This document shows, one piece after another, positions 1 through 64,000 of a DNA stretch of 64,000 nucleotides. The first letter of the stretch is position 1, and every line of letters begins with the position of its first letter. The notes below the pieces were generated by a model. That model did not search any database. It had not been told where the DNA came from and was given only the letters and a program-made list of their open reading frames with translations. The position numbers and the translations under genes were made by a program. Source of the DNA: an uncultured Peptococcaceae bacterium. GTDB lineage: Bacteria; Bacillota; Dehalobacteriia; UBA4068. The stretch is from NCBI GenBank assembly GCA_964372025.1, contig CAYJPF010000002.1, forward strand, positions 9,999 through 73,998, given 5' to 3'.

Positions 1-431
1 AACTTTGCGAATCTAAGCTAGATTATAAGGATCGTACCTTTATTCTTGAGACTGGTTCACGTGGTGCGGCATTGTTTAGTAAAGCTGTTCTTGACGTAGT
101 ATCAGGATGGTCAGCGGTTAATTTCCTTGGTGGAAACGCAGCTAATCCAGCCGTGATTAGTAAGACATCTAGCGAACTTCATGACAACGCACTTAGCGCA
201 GGATTCCAGTTTACAGAGTTTAAAGCTCCTATGGGAGTAACTCTTAAAGTTGAGGTGAATCCAATGTATGATGACCCAGTACGTAATAAGATTCTTCATC
301 CAAGTGGTGGTGTAGCCGAGTCTTATCGCTTTGATATCATGAGCATTGGTTCTACAGAAGAGCCTAATATTCAACTTGCTAAAGTACGTGGCAAGGAAGA
401 GATTCGCGGTTATATGTGGGGATTAGCGGCG
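1..431 (+). CDS. late/structural gene, exon 1 (5' end lies outside the window); interrupted by a group I intron
   Basis: Frame 0 is open from the window start to TAA at 432-434 (...KEEIRGYMWGLAA*). Coding-like composition; it lies at the head of the late-gene strand. An intron core follows immediately downstream. Confidence 0.5.
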
Positions 432-1251
432 TAAGCCTTTACACATTTCTCAGTTCCCAGGCCCTGACCAATATCAGAAGAGAGGGCATAAAAAACAAGG
501 TTAATTGCTGGAAACTCTTTAGAGCTTTTAGTACCCAAAACTTCAAACATTTAAATATGGAAGAAACATGGAAAGATATTGAGGGATTTGAACATAAATA
601 TCAAATTAGTTCCCTCGGAAATATCAAATCAGTTGATAGAATTGATACATTAGGTAGATTTAAAAAATCTGCTTTACGTAAAAAATCTTTTGAGAAAGAT
701 GGATATGAGTATATTACTTTAATCGGAAGTAATAGCAAAACAAGATCTTTCTTCGTACATAGACTAGTAGCAAATGCTTTTGTTAAAAAGCCTGATATTG
801 ACACACTACAAGTAAATCATATCGATGGCAACAAATTAAATAATGCTAGCTCTAATCTAGAGTGGGTGACTCCACAACAAAATACTAAGCATGCGCTCAC
901 ATTAGGACTTCGCCCATCCGGAGAAGATCATCCGAATGCTAAACTAACTAATGCTCAAGTATTAGAGATTCCTACATTATTAAATTTAGGATATTCTCAG
1001 AAAAAGATTTCTATATTATATAATGTATCCTATTCAACTATTAAAAATATTTGCCAAAAACGTAAATGGCAATTTTTGGGTAACAATCTAAAAGATTAGA
1101 CAATCAGCAGCCAAGCTTCGCAAGAAGAAGGTTCAACGACTATCCCGTTCGGGAGTAGGACTCAAGTGAGTTCGAAACGCCTTGAATTAGTTATTTATTT
1201 AACTAATTAAGATATAGTCTGAACTCTCTAGAAATAGAGAGAGAATACATG
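432..1251 (+). mobile_element. group I intron (IA-like core) carrying an HNH homing endonuclease ORF
   Basis: The canonical group I conserved elements are all visible: P AATTGCTGGAAA (503-514), Q AATCAGCAGCC (1102-1112), R GTTCAACGACTAT (1131-1143) and S AAGATATAGTCT (1209-1220). A P9-like GNRA hairpin CTCTCTA-GAAA-TAGAGAG sits at 1224-1243. The endonuclease ORF lies between P and Q. Exact splice sites are not determined. Confidence 0.7.
557..1099 (+). CDS. HNH homing endonuclease (NUMOD4 + HNH_3-like) encoded inside the intron
   Basis: ATG at 557, TAG stop at 1097-1099. Motifs: EGFEHKYQISSLGNIKS (NUMOD4-like), HIDGNKLNNASSNLEWVTPQQN (HNH) and AKLTNAQVLEI. The track ORF start at 416 is an upstream intron-sequence extension. 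Confidence 0.85.
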   Translation: MEETWKDIEGFEHKYQISSLGNIKSVDRIDTLGRFKKSALRKKSFEKDGYEYITLIGSNSKTRSFFVHRLVANAFVKKPDIDTLQVNHIDGNKLNNASSNLEWVTPQQNTKHALTLGLRPSGEDHPNAKLTNAQVLEIPTLLNLGYSQKKISILYNVSYSTIKNICQKRKWQFLGNNLKD

Positions 1252-1427
1252 GAAACGATGTATTCGTAACGTATAATGTGAGAAATCCGTTTAATGGTAG
1301 TTCAAATAATCCATATATGTCGTATGCAGAGGACTCTGCACAAATCCACAAGATGGCTACTCTAGGTGTCTTTATCCTAGATCCAACTCGTACAATGAGT
1401 TTGATTCCAAATATTCTTGTAGAGTAA
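1252..1427 (+). CDS. putative exon 2 (C-terminal ~58 aa) of the intron-split late gene
   Basis: A frame 0 ORF, the same frame as exon 1, is open from 1218 to TAA at 1425-1427 (…NDVFVTYNVRNPFNGSSNNPYMSYAEDSAQIHKMATLGVFILDPTRTMSLIPNILVE*). A plausible terminal intron G sits at 1251. The junction codon could be T|GA (Trp). Boundaries are inferred, not proven. Confidence 0.35.
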
Positions 1428-1438
1428 TATATATATAA

Positions 1439-1464
1439 AGGGGAAGATTTCTTCCCCTATTTTA
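1439..1464 (+). terminator. rho-independent terminator-like hairpin
   Basis: GGGGAAG-ATTT-CTTCCCC stem-loop followed by a T run (aaaggggaagatttcttcccctatttt), immediately after the split gene. Confidence 0.5.
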
Positions 1465-1475
1465 AAAATAAAATT

Positions 1476-2468
1476 ATGGGAGAAAAAATAGATAACTTAG
1501 ATTTTAATCTTGATGCACTAGATCAAGGTGGGGTGGCAGTGGAATTATCTGCGACTCCTTCAAAAACTAAAGTAAGGGGACGAACTAAGGCTGCCCCAAT
1601 TGATATGGAGGTAGACAATTGTCTCCTAAATGAAAAGATCATTGTAAGAAAAATACTCAAGCCAAAAGGGGAGATTACAAATACGGGACATGTGTTATAT
1701 GGCGGTATGGCCGATAATGCTGTTCAGTACATAACTCTTCCCATGAAATCTACGGGAGGGTATAAAAATGCGCTTACCAAGTCTGAAAAAGCTTTCCTAG
1801 AGGAAGCTATGGGACTAGAGGATAACGCGTTGTCAGTTCATCTTAAAAATGATAATTACTGGGAATCAGAGCATGCGATTGTTCGCTTAACTAAATCTGA
1901 CACAATTTTAGATTTATCTGATCCTACTGATTATATCAAGTATAAGATTCTTACGGCTAATTCTGGAATTATCGCAGATAGTCTAGGGACTATGCAGTCT
2001 AGACCTAAAGAGACCTACCAGTATGTAATTATTCGTACAGGGGAGGAGACTAAGTCTCTTAATGAAGAAATGACTCTTTCTATGCAAGCTTCTTTGGAAT
2101 TAGGCAAAGTTATGGAGAATAAAGATATTTTAAAATATCTCATTGAGACACTTGAAGGAAAGGCAGTATCAGACAATAGTTCTCTACAATGATTACAAGC
2201 ACAAGCATTTAAAAATATGAAGAGTAATACTAAATTATTTATTACTATTCTTCAAGATCCAGCAATTACTACAAAGGTTTTGATTAGAGAGGCAGTCAAT
2301 CACGGTCTTCTTCGTAAAAGAGGAGATTGGTATTATACCTCTGACAACTTACCATTGTCTGTATCAAATCAAGATCCTACTATGGAAATTGCGGCTAAGT
2401 ATCTTAATTCTCCAAAGAATCAAGAGTTTAAATTAATGCTTGATACTAAAATTAAAGCATTAAAGTAA
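1476..2468 (+). CDS. hypothetical late protein (~330 aa; one in-frame TGA at 2190)
   Basis: Track ORFs 1476-2192 and 2217-2468 share frame 0 and are separated only by TGA. There are no TAA/TAG codons in between. Stop is TAA at 2466-2468. Confidence 0.7.
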
Positions 2469-5290: not shown

Positions 5291-5967
5291 TGATAACTTA
5301 TAGAGAATTAGTTTATATGATTCTAGATGAATGTAAGCAGACTTACGATGACTCCAGAATAGAACCTGAACATATTATATTTCTTATAAATAAATATAGA
5401 GCTATATTTATTAAACAAAGGTATGGAGGGATTAAAAAGAATGTTCCTAAGCCTTATTATCAAACATTTACAGTGCCAAGTTCTGCGTATGATAATTTAA
5501 TTTTAGGTGATTTTAAAAGTATAAAAACTTCTATACAAATACCTAATATTCTAAATGTTCATGGTACATTATTAGAAACAATAGTTTCATTCAAAGACGA
5601 CTCAGAACTTGATGCAATTCCGATTGCTTTCATTAATCCTGAGAGATTTAAGTTCGTAGGAAATAACCCTTGGCTAAAAGATTTTATATACACTACTATT
5701 AGTCATGATAATTATTTTTGCATCAAAGGATACGTTCAGAAATATTTTGGCAAAGCCCTCTTGATTAAAGCCATTTTTGAAAATCCAATGGAATTATCTA
5801 CGGAAGAGCCATTAGATGTAATTTGTCCGATAGAGCATGCATTGATACAGCCTATAGTGGAATCTGTGTTAAAAGAGTTATTGCCTATATTATATATACC
5901 GACAGATGTAAAAAATGATTCTGCGGACGACCTTTTAATAAGTACAACTAATGGCGTTGGGAAATAG
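5290..5967 (+). CDS. hypothetical late protein (225 aa)
   Basis: Uninterrupted ORF with a TAG stop at 5965-5967. TAG acts as a terminator here; TAA follows two codons later. Confidence 0.65.
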   Translation: MITYRELVYMILDECKQTYDDSRIEPEHIIFLINKYRAIFIKQRYGGIKKNVPKPYYQTFTVPSSAYDNLILGDFKSIKTSIQIPNILNVHGTLLETIVSFKDDSELDAIPIAFINPERFKFVGNNPWLKDFIYTTISHDNYFCIKGYVQKYFGKALLIKAIFENPMELSTEEPLDVICPIEHALIQPIVESVLKELLPILYIPTDVKNDSADDLLISTTNGVGK

Positions 5968-7188: not shown

Positions 7189-10100
7189 ATGGAAATTAAA
7201 TCATCAGCTCCTTATGTTATCCAAGGGATGAATCAAGATCTTGGAGAAGCAGTCTACAATCCACAATTTTCATTTGAGAATCGAAATATTAAGATTGTAG
7301 CAGATAAGGATAATACAGCCTTTACAATAACTAGTGAGCAGGGCAATGAACGCATTTATTTTGATAGGGACATAGAAGGCGTGTGTATAGGCTCTGCTAC
7401 ATTATCGAACTATATAATTATATTTACACATAGCGACCTATGAGGAGGAACCGATCGAATCTATAGAATAAAAGACTTAAAAGAGTTAAATCTATTATAT
7501 GAAGGAGATTTAAATTTTTCTTTTGATAATTTATTAGAAGTTTTGTCAGATTATGAATCTGAGTCCACTCAGAAATTATATTGAACAGATGGAGTGAATC
7601 CAGTGAGGATGCTTTCTATATTAGGCGACATCCCTAAAAGTGCTTGGGAAGATCCTACTTATTTCGACTTTGTCCCTAATGTACAATTATATGATATATG
7701 TAGTATTACTAAGAACAATTATGGAGGACAGTTTGCTCCAGGAGTTATTCAATATGCATACTCATATATACGAGAGTGGCAAGGAGTAGAAACTAATATA
7801 ATTAATACATCGGATCTTAATTATATTTCTTATACTAATTTAGCTGGTTCTCCCGAAGACATTTGTTCTAATAGTTTCTCATTAAGACTCTCCGGCTTAG
7901 ATACAGATTATAAGTACGTGAGGATTTATTCTATACACAGAACTTCTTTGGATGCAATTCCCACTATAAAAAGTGTAGCAGAATTGGAGATATTGCCCCC
8001 TAATAATACTTTAGAGGGATTGTCAGACATGTCTTTTGTACAATTTATAGAATCTTTCCAAAGTACTATAAGGAATAATGCCAGTTTACCACAACAATAC
8101 ACGGCTGCTACGTTAACTACTGAGTTAGTTAAACTAACTTCTGAATATGAACAACTTGTCGCTTTTATTATTCATAAATATCAAATAGATATCACCGAGC
8201 TGAATAACAGCTTATTTACTCTCAAGGAAGTAGCAGAATTAATTTGAAGTACCTACACACCATATGTAGTATGTACAGACACCGGCATTGAGGGATATCC
8301 AATTGATCCTACTTCTTTGCTATATAAAAATATTAATTCTATTGTAGCAGAAACAATCTCTAGTAAAGATTCTACGCTATTTTTAGGAAATTATTCCATT
8401 CCCTCTGATGATATTCCCCCCATTACGCATTTAGCAGTAGGCACTAAAATAACCGCATCTGAAGTATTTGTAGAATCTAAATATTATTCAGATACACAAA
8501 GAGCATATTATTTTTACATAACTAATACCAATAAGCCTCCTACTAAGAACATAGTAATGGAGTTGGTATATAGGGATCTATCTGGAGATACGGTGCATAC
8601 AGAAGTTATACAGGCAGGCAGTTTTAAGTCTAATGATATAATTATTCCCACTGCCGGAGCAATAGTGGATATACGATTAGCCAACGATTCTCCTGTAACA
8701 GATGATAATTATGTTTATTACTACGGTACAAAACCAATTTTACCAGAGTCTAATAATATAAGTGCGTTTGAATGAGGTTATAGAAATTATATAAAAGCCG
8801 AAGATTCTACTTCAATTGATACATATACATATACTCCGTATTCATTGGAAAATGGCTCGGGGTATAGTAAACATTTTAAAAAAGGTCAGCCGTACCAGTT
8901 TGCGTTACAAGGACAATTTAATAATGGAAAGTGGGGAGACCCTATTCCTATAGGCGAATATACGGATACGGGTAATATAAATTACTATCTTACTCCTAAT
9001 AAATCATTTTTGTTAGATCCTGTCAGGACATCCAAATATACAATTCCGCATACGCTAACTGATCTCACGAATAACAATGGAGTACCCTCTATTTATTCAA
9101 ATAGTGATAAACAATTAACCTTAGAATATCCACTGTCTGATAATATAGCCTATAAACCCTCGTATTCAAGAGCAGACGGCTCCACTTCAGTATGGCCATT
9201 TATATACAAAGACTTTAATATAGACAATGCTAATCAATATTTAGCATACTATACTAAATATAAAGTTAATAATACATTTAAAGACTGCATGTGATTGGGA
9301 GATCCATCACAACCAATGGCTTCTACACAGCTGCTCTATAAAACTAATGAATATAATCTATCTTCTATTCCTACTAACATTGAGAACGTTACGTGGGACA
9401 CTGATTTTACTAAATTATATTTAAATAAATTACGCATACAGCTATCTTCTGCGCAATCCGAAGCACTATATAATTTAGGGTATAGAAAAGTTAGGCTATT
9501 ATATATTCCGCCTAATAAATCACAACGGAAATATCCTGCACAAGGATTTTTAACTAATACTATATTCTCGCCTAAGTTTAGAGCAACTAATGCTCCCTGG
9601 GCTGCTACGGATTATAGGGCTCGTCCAAAGGAAGTATATAGAATGTATAATGAAAATACTGAGGCATTTAAATATTGGTCTAATAATTCTATTACCGTTG
9701 AGGCATTGGATGATTCTGGAAGCACTATTTCTACACAGCGATATCACAGATCTCCGTACTTTGTGCCATTTGTAAATAAATATTTTTATAAAGATGGGGA
9801 TTCTATAAGTATATTACGTCATAATTATGGGCACCTTATGCCTATAAATAAAGAATTTGCGGCCCCCTCAATCAAAGAACAAACTATAGTACCTTTTCTT
9901 GAGACACCTGGCGCAGATGACAATATCGATTATAATGCGAAGAATCATTCGTATCAACCTGCATTAGTGGATTTATCCGATCAGCACTTCTACATGGATG
10001 AGAATATTGTAGACTTTTGGAGCCCTGATATAGAATTCCAAGAAGCAGAGCAACAATTTTATGAAAATGCTACTGCAAGAATAAAAATTAGGGGCACAAG

Positions 10101-39481: not shown

Positions 39482-39490
39482 TACATTTAA

Positions 39491-47321: not shown

Positions 47322-47322
47322 A

Positions 47323-48120: not shown

Positions 48121-48129
48121 TTTGTGAGT

Positions 48130-48753: not shown

Positions 48754-49520
48754 TATAGACTTTTTAAATAATTATGTGTTTTTTCAATAAAATCAGGTTC
48801 GCGTGTCCTACTGACCTCGTGGTAGGTAAATCCTAGATAATCTTCTGGCGAACTAGTTACTTTTAAAGATCGTGGAAAAGTTTTTATGAGCCATTGAGAG
48901 TTCTCATACATCTTACTCCAATCAGTTTCTTTAAAAGACTTTATTAATTGTTCAAAAGTTAATGGTACCCTAGGCAACGTATCTGTTGACCAACAATGAT
49001 TAATTCTTCGCAGCAAGCATAGTATCAATGAACAAATAGGATACTTTTGATATTCCTTATAATGCGCTCTTAATGCATATGCGGTTACTGCTAAATAATT
49101 ACCAGGAGCCTCGTTAGGTAATCGCATTAATCCCGCTAATAAAAATACACAATATTGGGGAATATTATTAAACGTGGCTGTAAGTTTGTATTTACAAAAA
49201 GCTATAGAAGAATTCTTTTCTACGTTTATATTAAAGGTAGGATCTAAAGATTGAAATAATGCAGTTAGTTCTTGGTAATAAGCAAGAGTTTCTTTCTTAT
49301 TAAGAAAAGAATGCGAAAGTACGTCTGAATATGCTTTTTTATCTGCTAAATAATAAACCAAAGCACCCGTAGCAGTATTTATTGTTTGGGTACGCATTCT
49401 ACCACTTCATCCCCCAAAACAAGCAGTTTCGGTTGCCTGTTTATTTATCCGGTCTACAATAGTTCCTTTATTAGAAACAATTGTTACATCTAAATGATAA
49501 TTACAATATAATCGTTTCAT
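48753..49520 (-). CDS. hypothetical protein (~255 aa; TGA at 49407)
   Basis: The track ORF 48753-49397 extends upstream through TGA to ATG 49518-49520. Confidence 0.45.
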
Positions 49521-49551
49521 ACTATAATTAACATTTTTTGGGATTCTTCTT

Positions 49552-51206: not shown

Positions 51207-51216
51207 ATATACAATT

Positions 51217-52227: not shown

Positions 52228-52228
52228 T

Positions 52229-53092: not shown

Positions 53093-53108
53093 AATATAGT
53101 TATTTAAA

Positions 53109-53483
53109 TTAAATACCGTAATATTCACGGATAGAATTGTCTACTAAAGACAATGAATTTGGGATCAGCATGTCGTTAAACATACCAATAGGAGATTTTC
53201 CAGAACTTGCATTACATTGTGTCTCAAAGTAATACTTATTTCTTCCATCTCCTGATGCTTCTACCTTAGTAAATAACACTACAGGTAAGAGAGATTCTGG
53301 GAATACTTTTTTGAGTTTTCTACCAGAAGTGGCTAATACTTTACGCTCTTGTCCAGAAGCATCTGTAACAAGTTCAGGATGCCCGAATATGTAGCATATT
53401 TGGTCTTCCCTAAGAATAGTATTAGCAGTCTTAATAATATCTACTACATCAATAGCTAAATCCTTCCATTGCGTTTGTTTTCA
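53109..53483 (-). CDS. exon 2 of an intron-split RecA-fold P-loop ATPase (Sak4/AAA_24-like)
   Basis: The frame is open from just after TAA(53484-53486)/TGA(53481-53483) to TAA 53109-53111. It has no start codon of its own. It reads …DLAIDVVDIIK…ICYIFGHPELV…MFNDMLIPNSLSLVDNSIREYYGI. Confidence 0.5.
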
Positions 53484-54254
53484 TTAGGTTTTTTATCCTA
53501 ATCTCTACGCATTTCTGCGTAGTCCAGCATACATCATCGCTTCACAGCGTTGGGCACTCGTGGGGTAATTATTAGTGACTTCTTCATACCCTATGCGTTG
53601 AACCTTCTCCATACTAATTAGTCTTCAGGAGCTTGGCTGCTTTTAAGTGATTTTCCCTATAATAAGGTTTTTACCATCTAATAGGCGTTATCCTATCTGC
53701 TTCTAAATACTTTTCAGTAAGTAAGCGGTACTTATTATTTTACAGGACGTTCCAGCAATTCACCCAATTTTAATTCGACCATTATTTAAATTGCCACCTA
53801 AATCCATAGGCTGTGTTGTACTTAGGTAGATTGTTACAACACTTTTGAATAGGACTATATGCACTTTTGTTAATAGATCTCGCAGCTTCTCTAATCGCAG
53901 GGAATTCTGCTAATACTTTCCCAGTATAACGATCTATTTTTAATACTGTTTTACCACGACTATAGTGACTATTATATTTAGTACTGCACCACTCTAAATT
54001 ATCCACATTATTATTAATTTTATTTTCATCTTTATGATTTACTTCTGGATAATTTTGTGGATTGGGTAAGAAGGTAAGCGCTACAGCTCTATGCATAGAT
54101 AGGTGATATTGTTTGTAATTATTATTCAGGGTTACAAACTTATATCCACGGGAATCAGTTGCTTGTTTTAAAGGTACTCCCTTCAAACCAAGTATGACTC
54201 CTGTTCTAGATACTTTGTATCTTGGATCTATAGGCAATTCTTTAAATTCCATAA
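53484..54254 (-). mobile_element. group I intron (same family as the 432-1251 intron) carrying an HNH homing endonuclease
   Basis: On the - strand: P GAATTGCTGGAA (53750-53761), Q AAGCAGCCAAGC (53631-53644), R GGTTCAACGCATAG (53591-53607) and a GNRA hairpin CTACGCAG-AAA-TGCGTAG near 53500. The ORF lies 5' of P. Boundaries are approximate. Confidence 0.6.
53782..54252 (-). CDS. HNH homing endonuclease (NUMOD4 + HNH_3-like) inside the intron
   Basis: MEFKELPIDPRYKVSRTGVILG (NUMOD4-like) and HKDENKINNNVDNLEWCSTKYN (HNH). TAA stop. Confidence 0.8.
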   Translation of the reverse strand: MEFKELPIDPRYKVSRTGVILGLKGVPLKQATDSRGYKFVTLNNNYKQYHLSMHRAVALTFLPNPQNYPEVNHKDENKINNNVDNLEWCSTKYNSHYSRGKTVLKIDRYTGKVLAEFPAIREAARSINKSAYSPIQKCCNNLPKYNTAYGFRWQFK

Positions 54255-54601
54255 TCGAATGACATTTTCTTGCGATCTCCCAACTCTTTAAAAGTTAGGT
54301 AACTATTAATTGTATCAATAGCACAAGATTTGATGTTCTCATCTTTAGACCAAGCTTCTAGAGTTTTAATAATAGTTGCAATATTATCAGTCTCTCTATA
54401 ATTGCGATTCTCTGCATTCCATTGTTTAGTTAATGCCGCAGGGAAAGGCAATTTCTTTTGATCAATATTGATTATTCCATGATGTTTGGGATTGATTCCC
54501 AAATAGTTTTCTACAAAGTCAATTGATCCATCAGGATTAATAACTGTAGAAGTAGATTTTCCGTCCCCGGAGAACCCAACGATTCCGACAACCACGCCCA
54601 T
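54255..54601 (-). CDS. exon 1 of the split P-loop ATPase (Walker A/B part)
   Basis: MGVVVGIVGFSGDGKST (Walker A) and …SCAIDTINSYLTF (Walker B-like). Its frame terminates at TAA 54242-54244, just past the HNH start, so the 3' boundary is approximate. Confidence 0.5.
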
Positions 54602-55785
54602 ATTCGTATAAATTTAAATTTCATAGTAGTCTTTTGTTTAGGATCTACTAATAAAGTAGCCACAATAACTTTATTATTTTGCCTTATAGCATTAATTTTA
54701 TTGTAAACTACTTCTAACTTCGCCTCCTCAGTAGGAGGAGGTAATTCTTTAAAGAAATTAACGGCTCCGTCAAAGTATAGAGGACAAATAAATTTGCCTC
54801 CTCCTTCTCGGCCTCCAATTAACTCTAGAAAGCGTATATTATCACCAAATTTGGCAATATTATACTTTAGAAAGGTAGGAATATTGTATCTATGGGGAGC
54901 ATATAAGCCCATAAATATATCCACGTCTCTCCATGTTGTTTTGCACTCACCTAGTCCGTCAGCAGAGGGCTTCAGCTTATCAAGTTTGAAATTCTCCGTG
55001 CCTTCTTGGGAAGCAGCCTGTTGTTGTACAACTACAAATGTAAATTTATATCTATTTCGTAATTGCACTAAATATTTCGAAGATAACAATTCTATAGTAG
55101 ACCGTAGATCTAGTCCCTTTTCTTGGGTAAGTAAGGATATGTGGTCTATGATTACTATGTTATACAACTCAGGGTCATTAGGTTCATAATAATCAAAAAC
55201 TGATCTAGAGTACTCCTCATGGGTCTCATTATCTTTAAATATTTTAGATGTAAAATGCGTAGTTCCAACAGATGAAGCATATTTCTGTAAAAACTCCTTA
55301 ATACCTGTTGGGTGCCGCACATCGTCGATGAAAGTCACGTGCTCCTCAAAATACGTAATATATTTTTGATATTCCGGAGTTTGTAGTAACTCTATTGCTT
55401 CCTGAGGAAGTAACTTTTCCAAGTTAATAGAGCGCAGTTGTTGACTATCCAATCTAATCTTTTGGCCGGATAATTTAAATAATAAATAGCAGAGAAATTG
55501 TATATATTTTTGTTCTACACTCATCTCAAATGTAAAATAAAACCATCGCACATGAAGACCTTTATCAATAGCTTCAAATATAGGCTCATATACTGCCATA
55601 AAGTCTGTAATTTGGGTCTTACCTACTTTAGAATTAGCTGTAACTAATATATATTTACCCTTCTCAAATCCTGGAAATACTGCTCTAAATCTAGGAAACG
55701 GTGAGGGAATACAATTAGTTAAACCTTTTACGATTCTCTCTCTATAACTTATTAAATTATGGAATACGCGTTCAAATATAGCCAT
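54511..55785 (-). CDS. DnaB/gp4-like replicative helicase
   Basis: ILVTANSKVGKTQITDFMA (H1), FTFEMSVEQ (H1a), IVIIDHISLL (H2). TAG stop at 54511-54513. The 3' end overlaps the next gene by 91 nt. Confidence 0.75.
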   Translation of the reverse strand: MAIFERVFHNLISYRERIVKGLTNCIPSPFPRFRAVFPGFEKGKYILVTANSKVGKTQITDFMAVYEPIFEAIDKGLHVRWFYFTFEMSVEQKYIQFLCYLLFKLSGQKIRLDSQQLRSINLEKLLPQEAIELLQTPEYQKYITYFEEHVTFIDDVRHPTGIKEFLQKYASSVGTTHFTSKIFKDNETHEEYSRSVFDYYEPNDPELYNIVIIDHISLLTQEKGLDLRSTIELLSSKYLVQLRNRYKFTFVVVQQQAASQEGTENFKLDKLKPSADGLGECKTTWRDVDIFMGLYAPHRYNIPTFLKYNIAKFGDNIRFLELIGGREGGGKFICPLYFDGAVNFFKELPPPTEEAKLEVVYNKINAIRQNNKVIVATLLVDPKQKTTMKFKFIRIWAWLSESLGSPGTENLLLQLLILMDQLTL

Positions 55786-56342
55786 TATAGTAATCCTCCC
55801 TCCAATTCCATAGGAATAGTTTCTTCAATATTAGTATTCTCCAGTATACTAAGTAAATCAGATTCTTCGTTCTTTTCTATGAAGTAAGGGAGTGTTCGCA
55901 TAATTTGTAAATTATGTCTAAATGTATGAATATATTCCTCAGTGGCTGCAATAATTTGCTCATTAGTGTACTTAGGGTATTTAAATAAAAACCCATTGAG
56001 TTTTTTAACTAGGCTTGCAGTACTACCTCTTCAATACATCGCTGTTCCGGGCTTTCTTCCTGTAGGAAATAACTCCTTCATCTTCTCCATCAGCTCATGT
56101 ATTCTTTCTATATCAGTTTGCACATCAGTTGCTTTGAACATTATTGCACTGGCCACAGAATGGCCCATTCCTGATAATACTATTTTACCGTCTTTAGAAG
56201 TAATAAGTCCTTTATCCAAAAGATCATTAAATTCTTCCAAAGATACGCAAAAAGCCAGTGAAAATAAGTATGCAAATTGATTAAACGTTAATCCTTGCTT
56301 TAATACGGCATTATGTTTTATGTTTATATTCATATAAAACAT
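55785..56342 (-). CDS. hypothetical protein (~185 aa; TGA at 56031), positioned like a helicase loader/accessory factor
   Basis: The track ORF 56031-56342 continues through TGA to TAA 55785-55787, which overlaps the helicase ATG. Confidence 0.5.
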
Positions 56343-57471
56343 TATTTAAATTAAATTCATCCTTAGTATCCCGATAATAAAATATATATACTTCTGGATC
56401 ATCTGGATTTCTTAGGGCCCTACCCACTTTTTGGATAAAATCTAGCTCTGCTCTATCTAATTGAGTAATTACACAAGCCTCAATTCCTGGAATATTTACA
56501 CCCTCTTTTAGCATATTAACTACAAAAAGATTATTAATCTCTCCTTGTTTAAATGCTTCGAGAACCTGCTTTTTATTAGAGATCTTAGAGTGTAATATAT
56601 TAGGACTCAACTGATTGGCTTGATCAATGCTACCACAAAAACAAATGTATTTTTTAGCATTGACAGCGGCATCTTCAAAGAATTTCTTTATATGCCTTGT
56701 TTTCAAGGCAGACAAATATTTTTTCCGATCTAATCCCGTCTTTTTAATACTAAAATCCACTCTCTTTGTAAAACATTTCTCCGCTTGTTTTTTATAATAC
56801 TCTAAAGTATTACAAATCATATTATACTTCTCATACTCAGTGCACCAAATATTTAAATTAATATCTGGTTCCTTCATATAATCAAATCTATCTGGGTACA
56901 TACAATCTATAATAGGAAAAGTTCTATTCCTACGAAATTCGTACACCTGATTCCTTTTAGACTGATCGAGTACTAGCGGAATTAAATGTATATTTGGGGC
57001 GGTTAGTCATTTTTCTCTCACAGCATCTCGTAAAGATATAACGCTTTCCTTAAATTCCCCAAAAGTGCGAGTGAGTGCTTTTTTAATGTCATTCGATAAA
57101 GTAGCAGACATAGCGATTATTTTAGGCACTTTCACAGTAGCTAAATATTGTAATCGTAATGTAGAGCAATGATGGGCCTCATCTAAGCCAATTAGGTCGG
57201 CAGACGTGTGTTGTATATTTCGTAATGAAGCATAACACATAATTATAGTATTCTTCAGTAAATATTCTTTACCAAATTTCCTATACTCTGCTTCCCAATT
57301 CTCAATATGGGCCTGTTCACTAACGATTAGATAAGTAAGTTTGGGACCTAGATGTTCTTGAATTTTAATAAACCCAAGCGATTTGCCCACAGAAGTAGGC
57401 CACCCTAAATAAATTCTTTCGTACTTAGTGCTTCAAGAAACCACTTGATCTTGTAACTCGTCCCTAGTCAT
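56311..57471 (-). CDS. superfamily 2 (DEAH-type) helicase, ~386 aa (TGA at 57433 and 57007)
   Basis: Track ORFs 57007-57390 and 56311-56946 are in one frame, and the frame extends upstream to ATG 57469-57471. Motif I LGWPTSVGKS, motif II LIGLDEAHHC, motif III IIAMSATL, motif V/VI VVNMLKEGVNIPGIEACVI…QKVGRALR. Confidence 0.7.
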
Positions 57472-57883
57472 TAGTAAGTTCCTTGAGACTTTTAAAATCC
57501 TTTTTAGCGATTAGTACTTTTTTAATAAAGGCTTTAGGATTAATTTTCTTCGATGTTATATCAGGTTGTGGCAACCATTCTGAATTATACCCTACCCGAG
57601 CTCGTATACATTTTTTATATACCGCAGTATTTTTAGTAATGAGTTTTCCCAAAAATAATGCAAGAGCAGTAGAAGATTTATGGCTGAGTGCCAGTAATTC
57701 TTCACGAGTCCATTGAAGATCTGAGTTTAATACTTTACAAAGATCTTCTTCAAAAGATACTTTAATATACATGTACCCTTCCCTTGGGACGAATCCTACA
57801 TTAGGGCGAAAGAGATTAACATAGTTAATAGGCACAAGCATAGTACCTTGATAGGTTTTAATTGAATTATGTAAGTTGTTCAT
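57464..57883 (-). CDS. hypothetical protein (139 aa)
   Basis: Clean ORF with a TAG stop. Confidence 0.45.
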   Translation of the reverse strand: MNNLHNSIKTYQGTMLVPINYVNLFRPNVGFVPREGYMYIKVSFEEDLCKVLNSDLQWTREELLALSHKSSTALALFLGKLITKNTAVYKKCIRARVGYNSEWLPQPDITSKKINPKAFIKKVLIAKKDFKSLKELTND

Positions 57884-57891
57884 AGTAATAA

Positions 57892-58296
57892 TTATAAAGA
57901 TTTGACAATTTGTTTTAATTTATTGATATACTCAGGGTCTTCTGCGTAAGGCAGATTTTCCAAAAATATATAATAGTCTTCAATCGTATGATTTTCTTTA
58001 GTAAATTTATATTCAACTAATTGTTGATATTTCACTATTGAATACGACCAAGATTGTCCAGATCAATTATAATATTCCTTCTTGGAACTATTATATAATC
58101 CAAATAAATTATTTTTAGACTTAAAAACATTTGATGTAAAATGTCCTGTCTCTAAAATGGCTTGTGCTGTAACTACTTTAGGATATAGAATATTAAAATC
58201 AATACAAGCATTGTATACATCTCACTTAGTGAGAGGAGGATTTCCTAATACGGCTATAGCATAAGCGCATGTGATAAATTTAATCATATAAGTCAT
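57892..58296 (-). CDS. peptidoglycan hydrolase, glucosaminidase (FlgJ-C/GH73-like) domain; candidate endolysin (TGA x2)
   Basis: No ORF is listed in the track because of two in-frame TGA codons. The - strand translation is MTYMIKF…K[W]DVYNACIDFNILYPKVVTAQAILETGHFTSNVFKSKNNLFGL…, which carries the diagnostic AQAILE(T/S)G…NNLFG(I/L) motif. TAA at 57892-57894. Confidence 0.65.
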
Positions 58297-58615
58297 ATTT
58301 TTCTGTACAAAAAGAACAGTATAAATGATTGTGTAAAGCAATTCTTCCACAAATCTCACAAGTATTTTCCTCTTTAAAAGGCAATGTGGGTTGGTGCCCT
58401 TCCTTAGGTAATTTTCTTTCGATTTGGTGGATATCCGTCCATTCTTCTAAAAAATCTATTATTGCATAATAAGTTATTGTTAGATCCGGCGAAGAAAATT
58501 TACAATGTAGGCCGCCTTCACCCTCAATAACTGCAAATTCATAATAGTGTCCACGAATTAATCCTTGATAATCTGTGCTTATGTACGTTCCTGCTAAATA
58601 AATAGGTGCGTCCAT
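58280..58615 (-). CDS. hypothetical protein with a C-terminal CxxC…CxxC pair
   Basis: 111-aa ORF with a TAA stop. Confidence 0.45.
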   Translation of the reverse strand: MDAPIYLAGTYISTDYQGLIRGHYYEFAVIEGEGGLHCKFSSPDLTITYYAIIDFLEEWTDIHQIERKLPKEGHQPTLPFKEENTCEICGRIALHNHLYCSFCTEKYDLYD

Positions 58616-58616
58616 G

Positions 58617-58970
58617 TTACCACTGCTCTGGAGTTCGAAGTCTTCCTAAAATATCATTAGGAATTGTTGGAATTGGGGCAAATACGTTTGGAGCGCTCTT
58701 CAATAGCATATAAAGAGCTTCTTCTATGGTACTTGCTTCTCCTACTATAAGATCGCTATATCCTACTTGCCACTTTTTAGTGGCAGGATCTAAATCAACA
58801 TGGATTCCGATTGCATAGCAATTTTCTTGTTGTGGAGCCCTAACTAAATAGCTCTGTTTTTTACTCTCAACGTCCGCATACTCGTCTATATATAAAATAG
58901 GCATTTGTATTAGGGCGTCCATAATAGAAGTTGCTTCTATCTGTAAAATTTTATTAATTTTTTTTAACAT
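58617..58970 (-). CDS. hypothetical protein (117 aa)
   Basis: Clean ORF with a TAA stop. Confidence 0.45.
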   Translation of the reverse strand: MLKKINKILQIEATSIMDALIQMPILYIDEYADVESKKQSYLVRAPQQENCYAIGIHVDLDPATKKWQVGYSDLIVGEASTIEEALYMLLKSAPNVFAPIPTIPNDILGRLRTPEQW

Positions 58971-59494
58971 GTCATTCTATTAACAGTTTTAAAATAATTG
59001 TCTATTACCTCCATAGAAATTGGAGTAAAGTCGTGAAACTCTGTATTTACATTGAAATATTCTGGACCTAATTGAACTAGATTACCCAGCTCATCTATCG
59101 CACTGCCGTGCTTATGTATATGCCCATGTATATTTCCCTTAAAAAATTTCACTTCTTGAGGATGAATAGGTATGTGCGAAAGAATGTAGCCGTTATATTG
59201 CATACATCCTACAACAGGTATACCTAAGTAGTTTGCTATTTTTAAAGTCCTTTTTGTATCGTGGTTGCCTCCTATGATATATTTACTACCATTCAATTCT
59301 TGGAGCTTATACATCCAAGTAGGAGAATTCATTGTAATATCTCCTAGAATAAATACTGTATCATACTTAGTAACTACGTTATTCCAATTTTCTTTAATAA
59401 TAAGCCAATCTTCCGGAGCTTCTCTGCCCCTAATTCAATTTATTAAATTATTGTGACCTATATGAAGATCACTGGTAAAATAAACTTTACTCAT
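58964..59494 (-). CDS. calcineurin-like metallophosphoesterase (~176 aa; TGA at 59435)
   Basis: The track ORF 58964-59332 extends upstream through TGA to ATG 59492-59494. Motifs: SDLHIGH, ILGD, GGNHD, GNIHGHIH. Confidence 0.65.
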
Positions 59495-59542
59495 TAAAAA
59501 AAGAATTTAATAATTCACGCTTTGAGGAGAATACATCGATAA

Positions 59543-59902
59543 TTATTTAGATCTTAAATCTCCATCCCCCTCAATTACTCCTTCTACTTTACGCTTTCGG
59601 AGTTTTTCCAGGATTTGGAGAAGAATATGTTCCATATCTAGCCCTAGACACGAGCCTAATGAGAAATATTGCCAACCGATGTCACCTAATTCATATTCTA
59701 ATAAAAGTCGTTCTTCATCCGAGAGAACGCTAATATCAATATGGTTATCAGTAACTTTGATTTTATCCTTACGGATTCATTTAGCAATCTTACCACAAAA
59801 TTCTCCTACCTCAGATACTAGTCCTAGTGTCATGTATGAGAAATTAAAACTTGTGGGAAGGCAAGTGTCTAGAGCTTTTTTTTGGAATTCATTAATGTTC
59901 AT
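59543..59902 (-). CDS. MazG-like nucleoside triphosphate pyrophosphohydrolase (119 aa; TGA at mid-gene)
   Basis: There is no track ORF because of an internal TGA. Translation MNINEF…TLGLVSEVGEFCGKIAK[W]IRKD…ELGDIGWQYFSL shows the EExGE and ELGD MazG motifs. Confidence 0.6.
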
Positions 59903-59913
59903 TTAATTTAGTT

Positions 59914-60135
59914 TTACCATTTGGCTATGGATTTATCATAGCCTCTCTTTTGCAGAGTAATAGAGAGCCAAGTAATTAGGTACATCAAAGTTGCCCCCAA
60001 TGACCCGGCTAATAGCCCTACATATAATAAGCAATTCAATCGTGTAATTACTCTCATACAAATAATGTCAATTATAATTAGTATTAAATTAATAATAATA
60101 CCAATCACGTACAATGTTGTTAGCAAGTCAAACAT
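59914..60135 (-). CDS. small membrane protein (2 predicted TM helices)
   Basis: 73-aa ORF, highly hydrophobic (LYVIGIIINLILIIIDIICM…LAGSLGATLMYLITWL). Confidence 0.45.
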   Translation of the reverse strand: MFDLLTTLYVIGIIINLILIIIDIICMRVITRLNCLLYVGLLAGSLGATLMYLITWLSITLQKRGYDKSIAKW

Positions 60136-60497
60136 GATGATTTAAAAATTAAGTTTTTACCTTTTACTTCTTGACAGTGTTGTGTGGCTATATTCCTAAT
60201 CAAATATTTATACCGAGGCTCATTCTTCTTGTTAAAGTAAATAGATTCAGAGAGAACCTCCCATAGTATTTTAGGGTCTTTTCTAATCGCCACTATATCC
60301 CCAATTATAATGGCACTGTTCTCGGAGTTGTACCAATTATAAAAATCTTCCCAAGTATTTTTACCAGGAATTATTTTAGGGTCTTCTGCCATTGTAAATA
60401 GCCCTGCTCCTTTACAAAACATAGTTATTGCTAAATGAGCATTTTTGTAATATCCAATTTCGGATAAATGTTGATTAACTTTCTCTCTAGTAATCAT
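60120..60497 (-). CDS. hypothetical protein (125 aa)
   Basis: Clean ORF with a TAA stop. Confidence 0.45.
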   Translation of the reverse strand: MITREKVNQHLSEIGYYKNAHLAITMFCKGAGLFTMAEDPKIIPGKNTWEDFYNWYNSENSAIIIGDIVAIRKDPKILWEVLSESIYFNKKNEPRYKYLIRNIATQHCQEVKGKNLIFKSSCLTC

Positions 60498-60515
60498 AGT
60501 TACGTACGTTTAGAA

Positions 60516-60740
60516 TTATACAATAAATATTTTATTAGGCGACCATATACTTCGATAAACAAGTATTTGTCCCCAGATTGGAATAGCGGAAGAAACTACA
60601 AGAAATATTATTTTTTCATAGATCTTCATTAACGGAGTATCATTCCAGCTTTTGATGTTTTTTGTGAAAGCTATAGCTTGTCCTAATAATAGGATTATGG
60701 CAGTAATTACAGATACTACACAATACAGGATTAAAATCAT
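60516..60740 (-). CDS. small membrane protein (2 predicted TM helices)
   Basis: 74-aa hydrophobic ORF. Confidence 0.4.
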   Translation of the reverse strand: MILILYCVVSVITAIILLLGQAIAFTKNIKSWNDTPLMKIYEKIIFLVVSSAIPIWGQILVYRSIWSPNKIFIV

Positions 60741-60973
60741 TTTTTTAATAAATTAGTAATTTTTTTAAAATGTACCTCACTGAAATCGTCTCGATCCCGT
60801 TGATCACATTTTACATACTCAAAACACGCTCCCATAGGACTAAATTCGCAAATTTGACATGCGCAAGCAACGGCAGTACTGTCTAAAGTAACATAAAGGA
60901 TTCCCCCTATTGCAAAACACTCTCCTATAGCAGGTTGTGCTCTATAGTCTTCGTAAAAGTGCGAATCTCTCAT
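60737..60973 (-). CDS. small Cys-rich protein
   Basis: 78 aa with CACQICEF…GACFEYVKC. Confidence 0.4.
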   Translation of the reverse strand: MRDSHFYEDYRAQPAIGECFAIGGILYVTLDSTAVACACQICEFSPMGACFEYVKCDQRDRDDFSEVHFKKITNLLKK

Positions 60974-60974
60974 A

Positions 60975-61190
60975 TTAGTATAATTTTGTATAAATTATAC
61001 TAATGCCGTCGGTCCGTTCTCTTGCTAAACATCGTACATCAGTACACGATCGCCCCAAAGATCTTGCAGAACACCCATTACAGGCTCCTGCAGCCAATAT
61101 AGGCTTACGTATAACTTTGAATAATCCTAGCTTATGGGGAATTAATTTTCCCACTTTATCTTGGAATTTATTGTTGTTCTCCATAACCAT
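60975..61190 (-). CDS. small Cys-rich protein
   Basis: 71 aa with AAGACNGCSARSLGRSCTDVRC. Confidence 0.4.
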   Translation of the reverse strand: MVMENNNKFQDKVGKLIPHKLGLFKVIRKPILAAGACNGCSARSLGRSCTDVRCLARERTDGISIIYTKLY

Positions 61191-61647
61191 AGGTAAATAA
61201 ATGTTTATATGCCAAAGCTTTGCTAGTAAAAGTCATGCTTTGATTGTTTATTGAGAAATAGCCCTTTTCTCCAAGAGTTTTATTTGCAAGTAATAGTCGG
61301 TACTGAGTTGAACATAGTTTCCTATCAACGAAAGGATTCCCTTCGGACTCTGTCCTAACATAATGACTTCGTATTGTTACTACACGAGCCTTAGTTATTG
61401 TTTTGTTTATTACTACGTAAAATTCTTGCCCTAAAGAGTATTTAAATGTAGGCTTAAATGCGGGAGGAGTGCGAGGAAATAACATTCGCAATCCTATCAA
61501 AGACACTACAAGGTACGCAAGGGCTAACATAATTTTATCGATTAGTCCCATAAGCTGTAAATCCCATTCTACAATGTTGAAGCTTCCTAAACAAATGCTA
61601 GTGAGAATATATAGTCCCACATTAGTGCTAATAATATAGTATTTCAT
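61168..61647 (-). CDS. hypothetical protein with an N-terminal membrane segment
   Basis: 159-aa ORF with a TAA stop. Confidence 0.45.
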   Translation of the reverse strand: MKYYIISTNVGLYILTSICLGSFNIVEWDLQLMGLIDKIMLALAYLVVSLIGLRMLFPRTPPAFKPTFKYSLGQEFYVVINKTITKARVVTIRSHYVRTESEGNPFVDRKLCSTQYRLLLANKTLGEKGYFSINNQSMTFTSKALAYKHLFTYGYGEQQ

Positions 61648-62084
61648 TAAAAGTATTTATTTAGATTAGTGGTATTATCAATCTGAATGTAGTCTGAAAT
61701 AAATCCTGGTGCTAGTGAGAGAGCATTGTTGGTGTTTACGTAGTAAAACATAGTACAATCTTTTCCAGAGAGCCGTAGTGGATTCAGAACTCCCATATCG
61801 CCTAATTTTTTAATTAATTTAGGGCCTTTTATTACTCCTCCCCAGAATCCAATTTTCGGAGAAATACATTTAGAAGGAATTCTAGGATAGATAACCTTTT
61901 TTAAAAAGTCTTCTCCAGAAGAACGAGGATTATCTTCTAAAAATACTGACAAATCATCTATTAACTCGTCGAGGGGCACGATTTTAAACCATTCTTCTAA
62001 AGATTTTGGAGAAGGAGTAGGGGGAATAACAATTGGTTTTTGTAGAAGTTGTTTTGCCCAAAACTGGAAATTTATATTTTTCAT
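61647..62084 (-). CDS. hypothetical protein (145 aa)
   Basis: ORF whose ATG overlaps the downstream TAA. Confidence 0.45.
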   Translation of the reverse strand: MKNINFQFWAKQLLQKPIVIPPTPSPKSLEEWFKIVPLDELIDDLSVFLEDNPRSSGEDFLKKVIYPRIPSKCISPKIGFWGGVIKGPKLIKKLGDMGVLNPLRLSGKDCTMFYYVNTNNALSLAPGFISDYIQIDNTTNLNKYF

Positions 62085-62116
62085 AATATATATTTCTTAA
62101 TATTGTTAATTATACA

Positions 62117-62341
62117 TTACAAAATCCGCAAAGGAATACCTATTGTAAACTCATGTTCTGCGTAAACAAATTCTTTAGGTAAATCTGTTGTCAAAACTTC
62201 ATTCATAATTCTGCTACGAATAATTTGTTTAGCAGTAATAGGAGATGTTATTCCAAAATCTTGAATAGTTTCATCTATATGCATGTGCTTATAAAAATCA
62301 TCTTTTCTTCGTGCTACTATATGCGCTATAAATGTTCCCAT
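62117..62341 (-). CDS. hypothetical protein (74 aa)
   Basis: ORF with a TAA stop. Confidence 0.4.
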   Translation of the reverse strand: MGTFIAHIVARRKDDFYKHMHIDETIQDFGITSPITAKQIIRSRIMNEVLTTDLPKEFVYAEHEFTIGIPLRIL

Positions 62342-62342
62342 G

Positions 62343-62798
62343 TTAAAATTGAATTAAATTATTTACAGCCGCTTCGAAAAAATCTTTAGCTGGACAAATG
62401 GGATTTTGCTTATTAATATATAAGCGTATGAGAGGGTGTAATTTTGCCACTTCTCTATGAGAGACTATCTGAACGTCTACAGGCATGCCATATACATTCT
62501 GAGGAAGTTTATAATACAAAGTAGTAGGTTTATCTAAATTAAATCTACTTAGTATTAAAAAGATTTTTACTAGGATTTTCTCAGGAACACCTACTTTATT
62601 ACACTCAAATAGTTCCATATTTTTGAGAGTATTTGCGGGATTCATCCATATCTTCGACGATTCTCTTGACATAGTTACAACAAGAAATTCATTTTTAGGA
62701 AGATCCGGTCCAAATTTTTTTATACCATATCTCGATAATTTTCTCTTAGTTTTATTCCTAAGATTAATGCTCTTAATTTGAATAATAATTGTTTCCAT
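62343..62798 (-). CDS. hypothetical protein (151 aa)
   Basis: ORF with a TAA stop. Confidence 0.45.
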   Translation of the reverse strand: METIIIQIKSINLRNKTKRKLSRYGIKKFGPDLPKNEFLVVTMSRESSKIWMNPANTLKNMELFECNKVGVPEKILVKIFLILSRFNLDKPTTLYYKLPQNVYGMPVDVQIVSHREVAKLHPLIRLYINKQNPICPAKDFFEAAVNNLIQF

Positions 62799-63158
62799 AG
62801 TATTACTTAGTTAAAGACATATTACGAAATGATCGATACAAAAGAATAGGTAAACAAAGTGCTTTTATGCCTTCTAATATAGAAGAAGGTTTTTTAGATT
62901 CATTTCCTATATGCACAATTATGCATAAATATGCTTGTGCAAGCAGCCCCCATACTATTGCCAATAGTAACATTATAGGTATGGATTTTGGGAAATGTCA
63001 ACTATTTTTCCAAATACTGTACAAAGGATTGCTCCTTTTGCCACAGGCTTTACTGCCGGAGGTTTGGTTAAATAAATAACTTTGTCCTCTTTTTTAGAAG
63101 TGTAACATACTAAGATGTTATTAATACGTGGTCTCATGTCATGAATGATTTAAATGTT

Positions 63159-64000
63159 TTACTTAATTTTAACTAGTTTTTGATTAACTTCATCATAATC
63201 AAATCCTTTTCTTCTCAATGCGTCCAACAAAAGTTTTTCTTGCTCCTCTGTAGCAGGAATAGCGTCGTCCATATATCCCTTACTACATATTATTCCTAAA
63301 GTGCAATACCAATTATTGCGGTAAAAGCATACAGTAATTAAATTAGTTGCTCCTGTCCTCTTCTCAAGCTTCTTGAAGATAACTATCTCATTACGTTTGG
63401 GTAGATAATAAATTTCTCCTGGAATAAATTCAGACTTGGGAGAGTCCTTAACAGATTCAACGAGTGGTTCAAGAGCATTTAACTCTTTATTCCATTGCAA
63501 ACCTTCTTCTGCTAATTTTTTATGAAAATAATTAACAGCTGATTTAGGGGCTATCGTGAATCTTTGGCAAGCGTGTCCTCGATGCATTTCTGTACTTTTA
63601 GTCAGTGTGTTAGTACCATTGATTCCCGCCAGTACATATGCTCCGTCTTTAATTGGCGCCTTAATCACGAATGGCCACTTATCATTATCGCCACAATTAG
63701 TAGGAATATATACAACGCCTTTCTGCAATTCGTGTGATAGATATTTTCTAGTATATACTAACTCTTTATTAGTAGGATCATATCCCATATCTTTCTTTTT
63801 CAGAGCAGTGATAAGAGCCATTCTCTCTATAGGGGAAGCCCTCCTACAAACAGGAGGCTTTAAAAAGTAATTATTTTCTGTAATAATTACCTCAGAATAA
63901 TGAAAGGACCAGTTTGTACCAAGTATTGCTAAAATTCCTACATTACCCTTTGGAGTAGTCCCACTGTATATAAATACAGCTTGAGAATCTTTACAAGTAT
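63159..64000 (-). CDS. hypothetical protein, 5' end beyond the window
   Basis: The frame of track ORF 63159-63821 stays open upstream all the way to position 64000, with no stop and no TGA. The gene therefore starts outside the window. Confidence 0.5.
   Translation of the reverse strand, partial: TCKDSQAVFIYSGTTPKGNVGILAILGTNWSFHYSEVIITENNYFLKPPVCRRASPIERMALITALKKKDMGYDPTNKELVYTRKYLSHELQKGVVYIPTNCGDNDKWPFVIKAPIKDGAYVLAGINGTNTLTKSTEMHRGHACQRFTIAPKSAVNYFHKKLAEEGLQWNKELNALEPLVESVKDSPKSEFIPGEIYYLPKRNEIVIFKKLEKRTGATNLITVCFYRNNWYCTLGIICSKGYMDDAIPATEEQEKLLLDALRRKGFDYDEVNQKLVKIK

Follow-up and report, generated by a model that had tools for sequence, protein, structure and literature searches.

The codon TGA is read as tryptophan (Trp), and not as a stop, in a phage genome of ~103.7 kb, of which a 64-kb stretch (positions 9,999 to 73,998 of contig CAYJPF010000002.1, assembly GCA_964372025.1) is analysed here and is referred to as the window. 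Judged by its gene content, the window is assigned to a crAss-like phage (Crassvirales, Steigviridae-like, or beta group), where the family placement rests on best hits. The explanation favoured here, to which a probability of about 85% is given, is that this crAss-like genome uses UGA as Trp and that a standard-code host is switched to this code by a factor that the phage itself would encode. An earlier reading, made from the sequence alone, had proposed that TGA is a sense codon in the window, and this is borne out by codon counts, by the calling of open reading frames (ORFs) and by homology that continues across the TGAs.

Open Frames and Codon Counts

Three long stretches of the plus strand stay open if TGA is read as sense. 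The stretch 7189–12846 contains 9 TGAs among 1885 sense codons, the stretch 18437–29680 contains 5 among 3747 codons, and the stretch 29682–34763, which terminates at TAG, contains 4 among 1693 codons; an internal TAA or TAG occurs in none of them. All of these counts match those of the sequence-only reading. The opposite strand of the same three stretches carries 96–202 TAA or TAG codons, and the open frames are therefore not a product of chance. From the base composition, the expected frequency of TAA or TAG is ~0.053 per random codon, and the probability of meeting none in 3747 codons is ~e^-204. These figures agree with the claim made earlier that such long frames are beyond chance; the GC content cited with that claim was ~33%, and the value measured over the window is 34.8%. 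When the count was extended to 57 genes or exons (20,960 codons), 55 in-frame TGAs, 207 TGGs and no internal TAA or TAG were found, so that TGA makes up 55 of the 262 Trp codons (21%) if it is counted among them.

Gene re-calling, which had been suggested as a check, was done by greedy selection of ORFs of at least 50 amino acids. With TGA as a sense codon, the 88 non-overlapping ORFs of the window merge into 54, the mean length rises from 219 to 372 amino acids and the longest ORF grows from 1226 to 3747 amino acids. The coverage of the window under table 4 increases from 90.4% to 94.1% only. No comparable gain was obtained in the window when TAG or TAA was made a sense codon, table 15 included. 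The controls were the uncultured phage cr108_1 (Pipoluvirus rarus, Steigviridae; MT774385), which is the closest GenBank phage with 58% identity in DNA polymerase A (PolA), and crAss001, one of the other Steigviridae that make up the next-best GenBank matches. Both use the standard code, and table 4 calling leaves their ORFs unchanged. Two plus-strand ORFs of the window, 47585–48400 with 10 TGAs and 48425–48742 with one, were rejected as antisense artefacts that lie over two TGA-free minus-strand genes.

The Amino Acid Assigned to TGA

The 57 genes or exons were translated with TGA as X and compared by tblastn with cr108_1 and crAss001. It was found that 42 of the 55 TGA columns align to cr108_1, where the residues are 24 Trp, five Tyr, three Leu, two Phe, two Ile, two Asn and one each of Asp, His, Ser and Glu. 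Neither Gly nor Cys occurs at any of these 42 columns. Since Trp accounts for 1.15% of the subject residues, 24 of 42 corresponds to a binomial P of 9e-36. In a likelihood comparison, whose substitution table came from these same alignments (15,964 columns), the most likely identity of X was Trp, with a lead of 62 ln units over Tyr, 102 over Cys and 181 over Gly. The ranking against crAss001 was the same, with Trp at eight of 22 residue columns (24 aligned, of which two are gapped). Control columns at TGG showed Trp in 101 of 147 cases, and the TGA columns that lack Trp hold mostly aromatic or hydrophobic residues, a pattern like that at the TGG columns. Opposite the TGAs of the window, Trp fills 219 of 310 cells in 14 cr108-like IMG/VR contigs.

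PolA carries two TGAs, and both columns could be read in a set of 42 homologs. The column of TGA-218 holds Trp in all 42, and that of TGA-611 holds Tyr in 21 and Trp in 18. BLASTP against E. coli Pol I places TGA-611 opposite the Trp of IAVDAWL, which confirms the alignment with the Trp of AVDAWLQ that had been put forward from the sequence alone. A search of PDB with PolA was uninformative: its top matches, apicoplast polymerases, carry Asn at the position of residue 611. Pfam domain matches span the TGAs in PolA and in MazG. The sequence-only reading had favoured Trp over Gly and had named non-homologous junk past the TGAs, or columns of gaps and stops, as what would speak against recoding; instead, homology continues across 42 of the 55 TGAs, with 24 Trp against no Gly. 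Taken together, the alignments indicate that TGA is read as Trp, and table 25 (Gly) is ruled out on the same comparison.

The blocks and genes on which the argument draws are as follows (window positions).

1–34763, plus strand: late/structural block with the major capsid protein (MCP), auxiliary capsid, tail ring, cargo and giant virion proteins; assigned by Pfam crAss families and synteny to cr108_1.
7189–12846, plus strand: 1885-amino-acid tail protein, homolog of crAss001 gp44; six of its nine TGAs lie opposite Trp in cr108_1.
18437–29680, plus strand: 3747-amino-acid giant virion protein with five TGAs, homolog of crAss001 gp50/gp47 (putative RNA polymerase by annotation).
29682–34763, plus strand: 1693-amino-acid virion protein with four TGAs, ending in TAG.
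35119–35691, minus strand: Thy1/ThyX-like protein; TGA at codons 13 and 56.
36725–38755, minus strand: DNA polymerase A; TGA at 38104–38102 (residue 218) and 36925–36923 (residue 611), the latter preceding VHDE and ...DHWVH.
39023–39481, minus strand: aspartyl protease; TGA at 39358–39356, just upstream of LVDTGAT.
42684–43739, minus strand: PD-(D/E)XK exonuclease; two TGAs, both opposite Trp in cr108_1.
44402–55785, minus strand: TGA-poor block with an amidoligase, two glutamine amidotransferases, a COOH-NH2 ligase, an ATP-grasp protein, primase, a split ATPase and DnaB.
56311–57471, minus strand: SNF2-type helicase; TGA at 57435–57433 (codon 13), preceding GWPTSVGKS, and at 57009–57007 (codon 155), both Trp in cr108_1.
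57892–58359, minus strand: glucosaminidase-domain peptidoglycan hydrolase; two TGAs.
59543–59902, minus strand: MazG-domain protein; TGA at codon 42, within the domain match (residues 23–105).
60737–60740, minus strand: ATGA overlap, in which the TGA is codon 79 of 80 in the gene 60731–60973 and overlaps the ATG of the gene 60516–60740.

For the ThyX-like protein, neither cr108_1 nor crAss001 offers a homolog that can be aligned. The polymerase, protease and helicase motifs that follow TGAs had been located correctly from the sequence alone, in coordinates and in motif, and the TGA-containing glucosaminidase and MazG genes named there are present. The ribonucleotide reductase (RNR), the 339-amino-acid auxiliary capsid protein, the amidoligases and DnaB are free of TGA, as stated earlier; for RNR, the length of ~1067 codons given with that statement has to be replaced by 1100 codons.

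Gene Ends

Among the 55 gene ends that were scored, 48 are TAA, seven are TAG and none is TGA. The TAG stops include those at 5965–5967, 34761–34763 and 43708–43710, in line with the earlier description of TAA at nearly all gene ends and TAG at these few. TGA terminates seven of the 68 syntenic genes of cr108_1, and TGA-ended ORFs amount to 14% in cr108_1 and 24% in crAss001. At an expectation of 10%, the absence of TGA from 55 ends has a probability of ~0.003.

The statement that TGA never terminates a gene holds for all of these ends, and it is unprovable for one gene only, 60731–60973, which takes part in the ATGA overlap. The TGA of the overlap (60739–60737) is followed directly by TTT TAA; whichever codon ends the gene, the difference in the protein amounts to two residues. 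This TGA resembles the remnant of an older TGA terminator backed up by TAA, and it is the only place in the window where TGA could still terminate.

Uneven Use of TGA Among Genes

The use of TGA is not uniform, and the gene-stratified usage noticed from the sequence alone was supported by a permutation test of heterogeneity among genes (p = 2e-4). In the late block (1–34763), 37 TGAs stand against 88 TGGs, so that TGA makes up 30% of the Trp codons. The share is 20% in 34815–44409 and 23% in 55785–64000. Between these two regions lies the TGA-poor block of ~11 kb (44402–55785) with one TGA, at 49409, against 56 TGGs (2%). A scan statistic that allows for the post hoc choice of the block gave a longest run of 57 Trp codons with at most one TGA (p = 3e-4). 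This block is almost compatible with the standard code, and it could consist of genes that are translated before a switch of code or of genes that were recently imported.

TGAs are found in replication genes as well as in virion genes, and thus recoding is not restricted to late genes, which differs from the usual pattern of recoded late genes and standard-code replication genes. The minus-strand half, which holds the replication and metabolism genes, contains 18 TGAs. Two occur in each of PolA, the SNF2 helicase, the PD-(D/E)XK nuclease, the ThyX-like protein and the glucosaminidase, and one occurs in MazG. If the TGA-poor block is set aside, the TGA share does not differ between the late and the middle module (30% vs 21%, p = 0.20). 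Neither the base that follows TGA as compared with TGG (p = 0.09) nor the position of TGA along genes (Kolmogorov–Smirnov test against uniform, p = 0.31) departs clearly from expectation. Over the window, the A-ending share is 21% for Trp vs 62–78% for the Lys, Glu, Gln, Leu and Arg pairs.

The contrast between the block and its flanks of 20–30% TGA raises the possibility that two codes are in use, where 44402–55785 is still read early with the standard code (TGA as stop) and only the remainder depends on the switch. Block-wise use of codes has been described for crAss-like phages (PMC9523058, PMC7886860). Nevertheless, no gene of the block ends in TGA, though the cr108_1 ortholog of the primase does; one in-frame TGA persists in the block at 49409; and PolA, which is needed along with primase and DnaB, carries two TGAs. 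A division into two codes is therefore considered possible but doubtful, and it would refine the favoured explanation more than compete with it.

Decoding of UGA and the Host

TGA has been purged from gene ends and takes the place of TGG at about one-fifth of the Trp codons. According to the favoured explanation, the host would be a standard-code member of the Bacteroidota, and the phage would convert the infected cell to UGA = Trp by means of a factor encoded outside the window. The likeliest candidate is a suppressor tRNA with the anticodon UCA, presumably charged by the tryptophanyl-tRNA synthetase (TrpRS) of the host. The switch would act before or during the middle phase of infection, because PolA needs two read-throughs and a UGA decoder must then be active by that phase. 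The share of TGA among Trp codons lies far below the compositional equilibrium (21% vs 62–78%), which points to a reassignment that may be evolutionarily young or still costly. The model for these steps comes from published work, in which the hosts of recoded crAss-like phages are standard-code Bacteroidetes and the switch of code is believed to depend on suppressor tRNAs, and the host TrpRS is thought to be able to charge a UCA suppressor (PMC7886860; bioRxiv 10.1101/2021.08.26.457843).

Several observations weigh against this explanation. No tRNA of any kind was detected in the 64 kb of the window by ARAGORN or by Rfam at gathering and permissive thresholds, and TGA occurs in replication genes, where the usual picture has recoding in late genes only. 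A UCA suppressor has been detected in only 15–35% of code-4 phages in published surveys (including bioRxiv 10.1101/2021.08.26.457843), and Yutin et al. list one among crAss-like genomes (PMC7886860). As such a suppressor is absent from most published code-4 phages, its absence from the window does not exclude the phage from their number. Pfam showed neither a release factor nor an aminoacyl-tRNA synthetase among the window proteins scanned, which are those other than the three giant virion proteins.

The alternative is that the phage merely copies its host, a still-undescribed gut bacterium, by Crassvirales precedent one of the Bacteroidota, that natively reads UGA as Trp, with no phage-driven switch. 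This would account for TGA in middle genes including the DNA polymerase, for the lack of TGA at gene ends and for the lack of a suppressor tRNA in 64 kb; in addition, the code-4 phages in GenBank mostly infect Mycoplasma or Spiroplasma and share the code of their host, as noted in a published review. On the other hand, all published hosts of Crassvirales are standard-code Bacteroidota, and the closest relatives of the phage use the standard code with TGA as a stop. Free native decoding of UGA would not lead one to expect a block of 11 kb that avoids TGA, and the share of 21% against 62–78% of A-ending codons in comparable pairs is more in keeping with a suppression imposed on the host than with native reading of UGA by it. 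A native code of the host is thus regarded as improbable.

Two further readings have a negligible probability. Decoding of TGA as Gly (table 25), Cys or selenocysteine has a precedent in code 25 phages, which infect Absconditabacteria (Borges et al., bioRxiv 10.1101/2021.08.26.457843), but it is contradicted by the lack of Gly and Cys at the cr108_1 columns, by likelihoods that trail Trp by 181 and 102 ln units, by the aromatic or hydrophobic residues at most of the non-Trp columns, as at TGG, and, for selenocysteine, by the spread of 55 sites over unrelated proteins; the Rfam scans of the window returned no family of selenocysteine insertion sequences (SECIS), for which no dedicated search was made. 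The other reading, that the TGAs do act as stops, in a genome that is degraded, wrongly assembled or split into many pieces, or are occasionally read through, can point to an isolated TGA in the IMG/VR contig L028, which is otherwise of standard code, but it does not fit 55 in-frame TGAs against no in-frame TAA or TAG, homology and essential motifs that continue downstream of TGAs, or the lack of TGA at gene ends.

Comparison with Known Recoded Systems

Recoding of TGA to Trp and of TAG to Gln in crAss-like phages has already been published (PMC7886860; bioRxiv 10.1101/2021.08.26.457843), and the latter was confirmed by proteomics (PMC9523058). In the part of Supplementary Data 1 of Yutin et al. 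that was consulted, every genome marked TGA|w belongs to the zeta group, and ~40 circular assemblies of the beta group are given as standard code ('c11'), with one labelled as 'some reassignment' and carrying a CTA suppressor (PMC7886860). A pig-gut survey of 2025 reported code 15 for the beta cluster and did not find code 4 there. For Steigviridae, no account of code 4 turned up in the literature searched, of which the coverage was partial and did not include the supplementary tables of Borges et al.

The zeta-group phages share with the window the order Crassvirales, the TGA-to-Trp reassignment and the presence of introns or inteins in conserved genes, and in them, too, a UCA suppressor tRNA mostly escapes detection. 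Their genomes measure 158–177 kb, whereas the phage of the window has ~104 kb and belongs with the beta group, or Steigviridae (PMC7886860). The TAG-to-Gln phages of the delta group, or Suoliviridae, are similar in that they, too, have turned a stop codon into a sense codon and infect standard-code Bacteroidota (which for the window would be the likely host) and in that the recoded codon is spread unevenly among genes (PMC9523058). They differ in the codon and the amino acid concerned, and their recoding lies mostly in the unit of late structural and lysis genes. TAG-to-Gln crAss-like phages often carry a CTA suppressor tRNA; in the window, replication genes are recoded too.

Outside crAss-like phages, the Agate and Jade phages read TGA as Trp and have predicted gut hosts of standard code (bioRxiv 10.1101/2021.08.26.457843). 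In the model proposed for them, expression begins with the standard-code genes, and the recoded genes follow once the code has switched. They form clades unrelated to the phage of the window, and the 'code-change module' of Jade, which consists of a suppressor tRNA, TrpRS and RF1, has no counterpart found in the window. The table 4 code of Mycoplasma and Spiroplasma and their phages resembles that of the window in having UGA as Trp and only TAA and TAG as stops. There the code belongs to the host, whereas the host expected for the window has the standard code. TGA is the dominant Trp codon in Mycoplasma and Spiroplasma genomes and a minority codon here. The nearest comparison is with cr108_1 itself, which has the same gene order over the whole window at protein identities of 23–82%. 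It uses the standard code, its long ORFs are intact under table 11, and it has TGG where the window has TGA.

The recoding described here is thus of a known kind and not a new system; its modest distinctions are the Steigviridae lineage and the reach into replication genes. An independent and recent origin of code 4 within Steigviridae, in a lineage known from one contig where recoding has already passed beyond the late genes, is judged about as likely as not, and far likelier than a native code of the host. TGA-to-Trp can now be placed in the beta group, or Steigviridae, beside relatives of standard code and relatives that have recoded TAG. Such a distribution speaks for changes of code over short evolutionary distances in crAss-like phages. 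A recoded DNA polymerase beside a TGA-poor replisome block offers a test case for the hypothesis that a switch of code times gene expression.

The importance of the finding lies mainly in that hypothesis and in annotation. The standard table fragments the polymerase, the helicase, the nucleases and all giant virion proteins of this genome. The first filter used by Borges et al. was a gain in coding density of 5–10% (bioRxiv 10.1101/2021.08.26.457843). As the TGAs are sparse (55 in 64 kb) and the gain in coverage falls below this filter, such genomes may pass unnoticed.

Relatives and Rarity

A large public protein collection represents this genome by two proteins, which come from an NCBI contig of 103,710 bp; look-ups by exact protein sequence gave no hit. 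One of them, the PolA record (P0005), is a fragment of 389 amino acids that lies exactly between the two TGAs (window 36926–38092, minus strand), from which it follows that the genes of this genome were called in that collection with the standard code. Of the 5.8 billion clusters there, the one with the next-best PolA shows 59% identity, and the lineage is therefore represented in the collection by a single genome. Scans of IMG/VR, of JGI metagenomes and of GTDB genomes with exact 34-mers gave no match, and scans of IMG/VR with single proteins gave either nothing or proteins of only 32–42% identity. An INPHARED megablast returned no match to the window at the nucleotide level.

Steigviridae loci from IMG/VR were collected by alignment-based scans for the replication module (78 loci around the helicase) and for the late module (80 loci around tail ring protein 1). 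None of them is TGA-recoded, none has a UCA tRNA, and the best of them are no closer to the window than cr108_1. One of the back-translated search patterns includes a Trp that is TGA in the window, so that recoded relatives were possibly under-sampled. The contig L028 (IMGVR_UViG_3300045988_067645) has a single in-frame TGA, at 10037–10039, which is codon 13 of its SNF2 gene and is TGA in the window too. The late region of the same genome (L111) has no in-frame TGA. L028 was rejected as a recoded genome, given the one TGA, the standard code elsewhere and the clean late region. Its TGA could be an isolated mutation or polymorphism, a sequencing error or an incipient step towards recoding.

Two GenBank records were also considered. 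MT835470 uses the standard code. MT835492.1, an unannotated 121.6-kb 'Bacteriophage sp.' with a PolA related to that of the window, is TAG-recoded: under table 15 its coverage rises from 0.60 to 0.93 and its mean ORF from 139 to 280 amino acids. ARAGORN found five tRNAs in it and no suppressor among them.

Gene Content of the Window

The assignment to crAss-like phages draws on Pfam matches to crAss_AuxCP, CrAss_Ring_1, Ring_2, Ring_3_4, crAss_CARG1 and crAss_CARGO2. Further Pfam matches are to DNA polymerase A, ribonucleotide reductase, DnaB and the C-terminal domain of an SNF2-type helicase, as well as to a PD-(D/E)XK nuclease, an aspartyl protease, a dNMP kinase, a cluster of amidoligase, amidotransferase and ATP-grasp proteins, a glucosaminidase and MazG. 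The gene order from MCP to the SNF2 helicase is common to the window, cr108_1 and crAss001. The plus-strand half (1–34763) forms the structural or late module and the minus-strand half that of replication and nucleotide metabolism, and the GC skew turns over where the two meet.

Introns, Inteins and Other Observations

The MCP gene (3–1427, plus strand) is interrupted, with exon 1 extending to ~425, an intron at ~426–1274 and exon 2 at ~1275–1427. The insert contains a NUMOD4/HNH homing-endonuclease ORF at 416–1099 and an Rfam group I intron core at 1030–1241, whose 53.9 bits exceed the gathering score. The capsid protein of cr108_1 is uninterrupted, and both exons align to it.

The ATPase gene (53109–54601, minus strand), a homolog of cr108_1 gp_22637, is split by an insert of 785 nt. 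Exon 1 occupies 54601–54254, the insert 54253–53469 and exon 2 53468–53112, followed by the stop at 53111–53109. An HNH endonuclease ORF lies in the insert at 53782–54252, together with a sub-threshold match to a group I intron at 53505–53829 (22.6 bits, E = 0.003 in a 1.1-kb search). By these features, the insert is probably a second self-splicing intron.

RNR (39491–42793, minus strand) carries, in frame at residues ~340–582, a Hint/intein domain that includes an HNH endonuclease, and it is this intein that brings the gene to 1100 codons. The RNR of cr108_1 is annotated as two coding sequences with an unrelated ORF between them, so that the same gene has been invaded differently in the two phages. 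The 3747-amino-acid ORF covers two coding sequences of cr108_1 (49505–58408 and 58699–61095, with a gap of 290 nt); either the genes are fused in the window or the cr108_1 gene is itself interrupted. Finally, seven minus-strand genes at 44402–51206 encode an Amidoligase_2 protein, a class II glutamine amidotransferase, a phiEco32-like COOH-NH2 ligase, a Peptidase_C26/GATase protein, two unknown proteins and a RimK-like ATP-grasp protein, and this cluster is mostly conserved in cr108_1.

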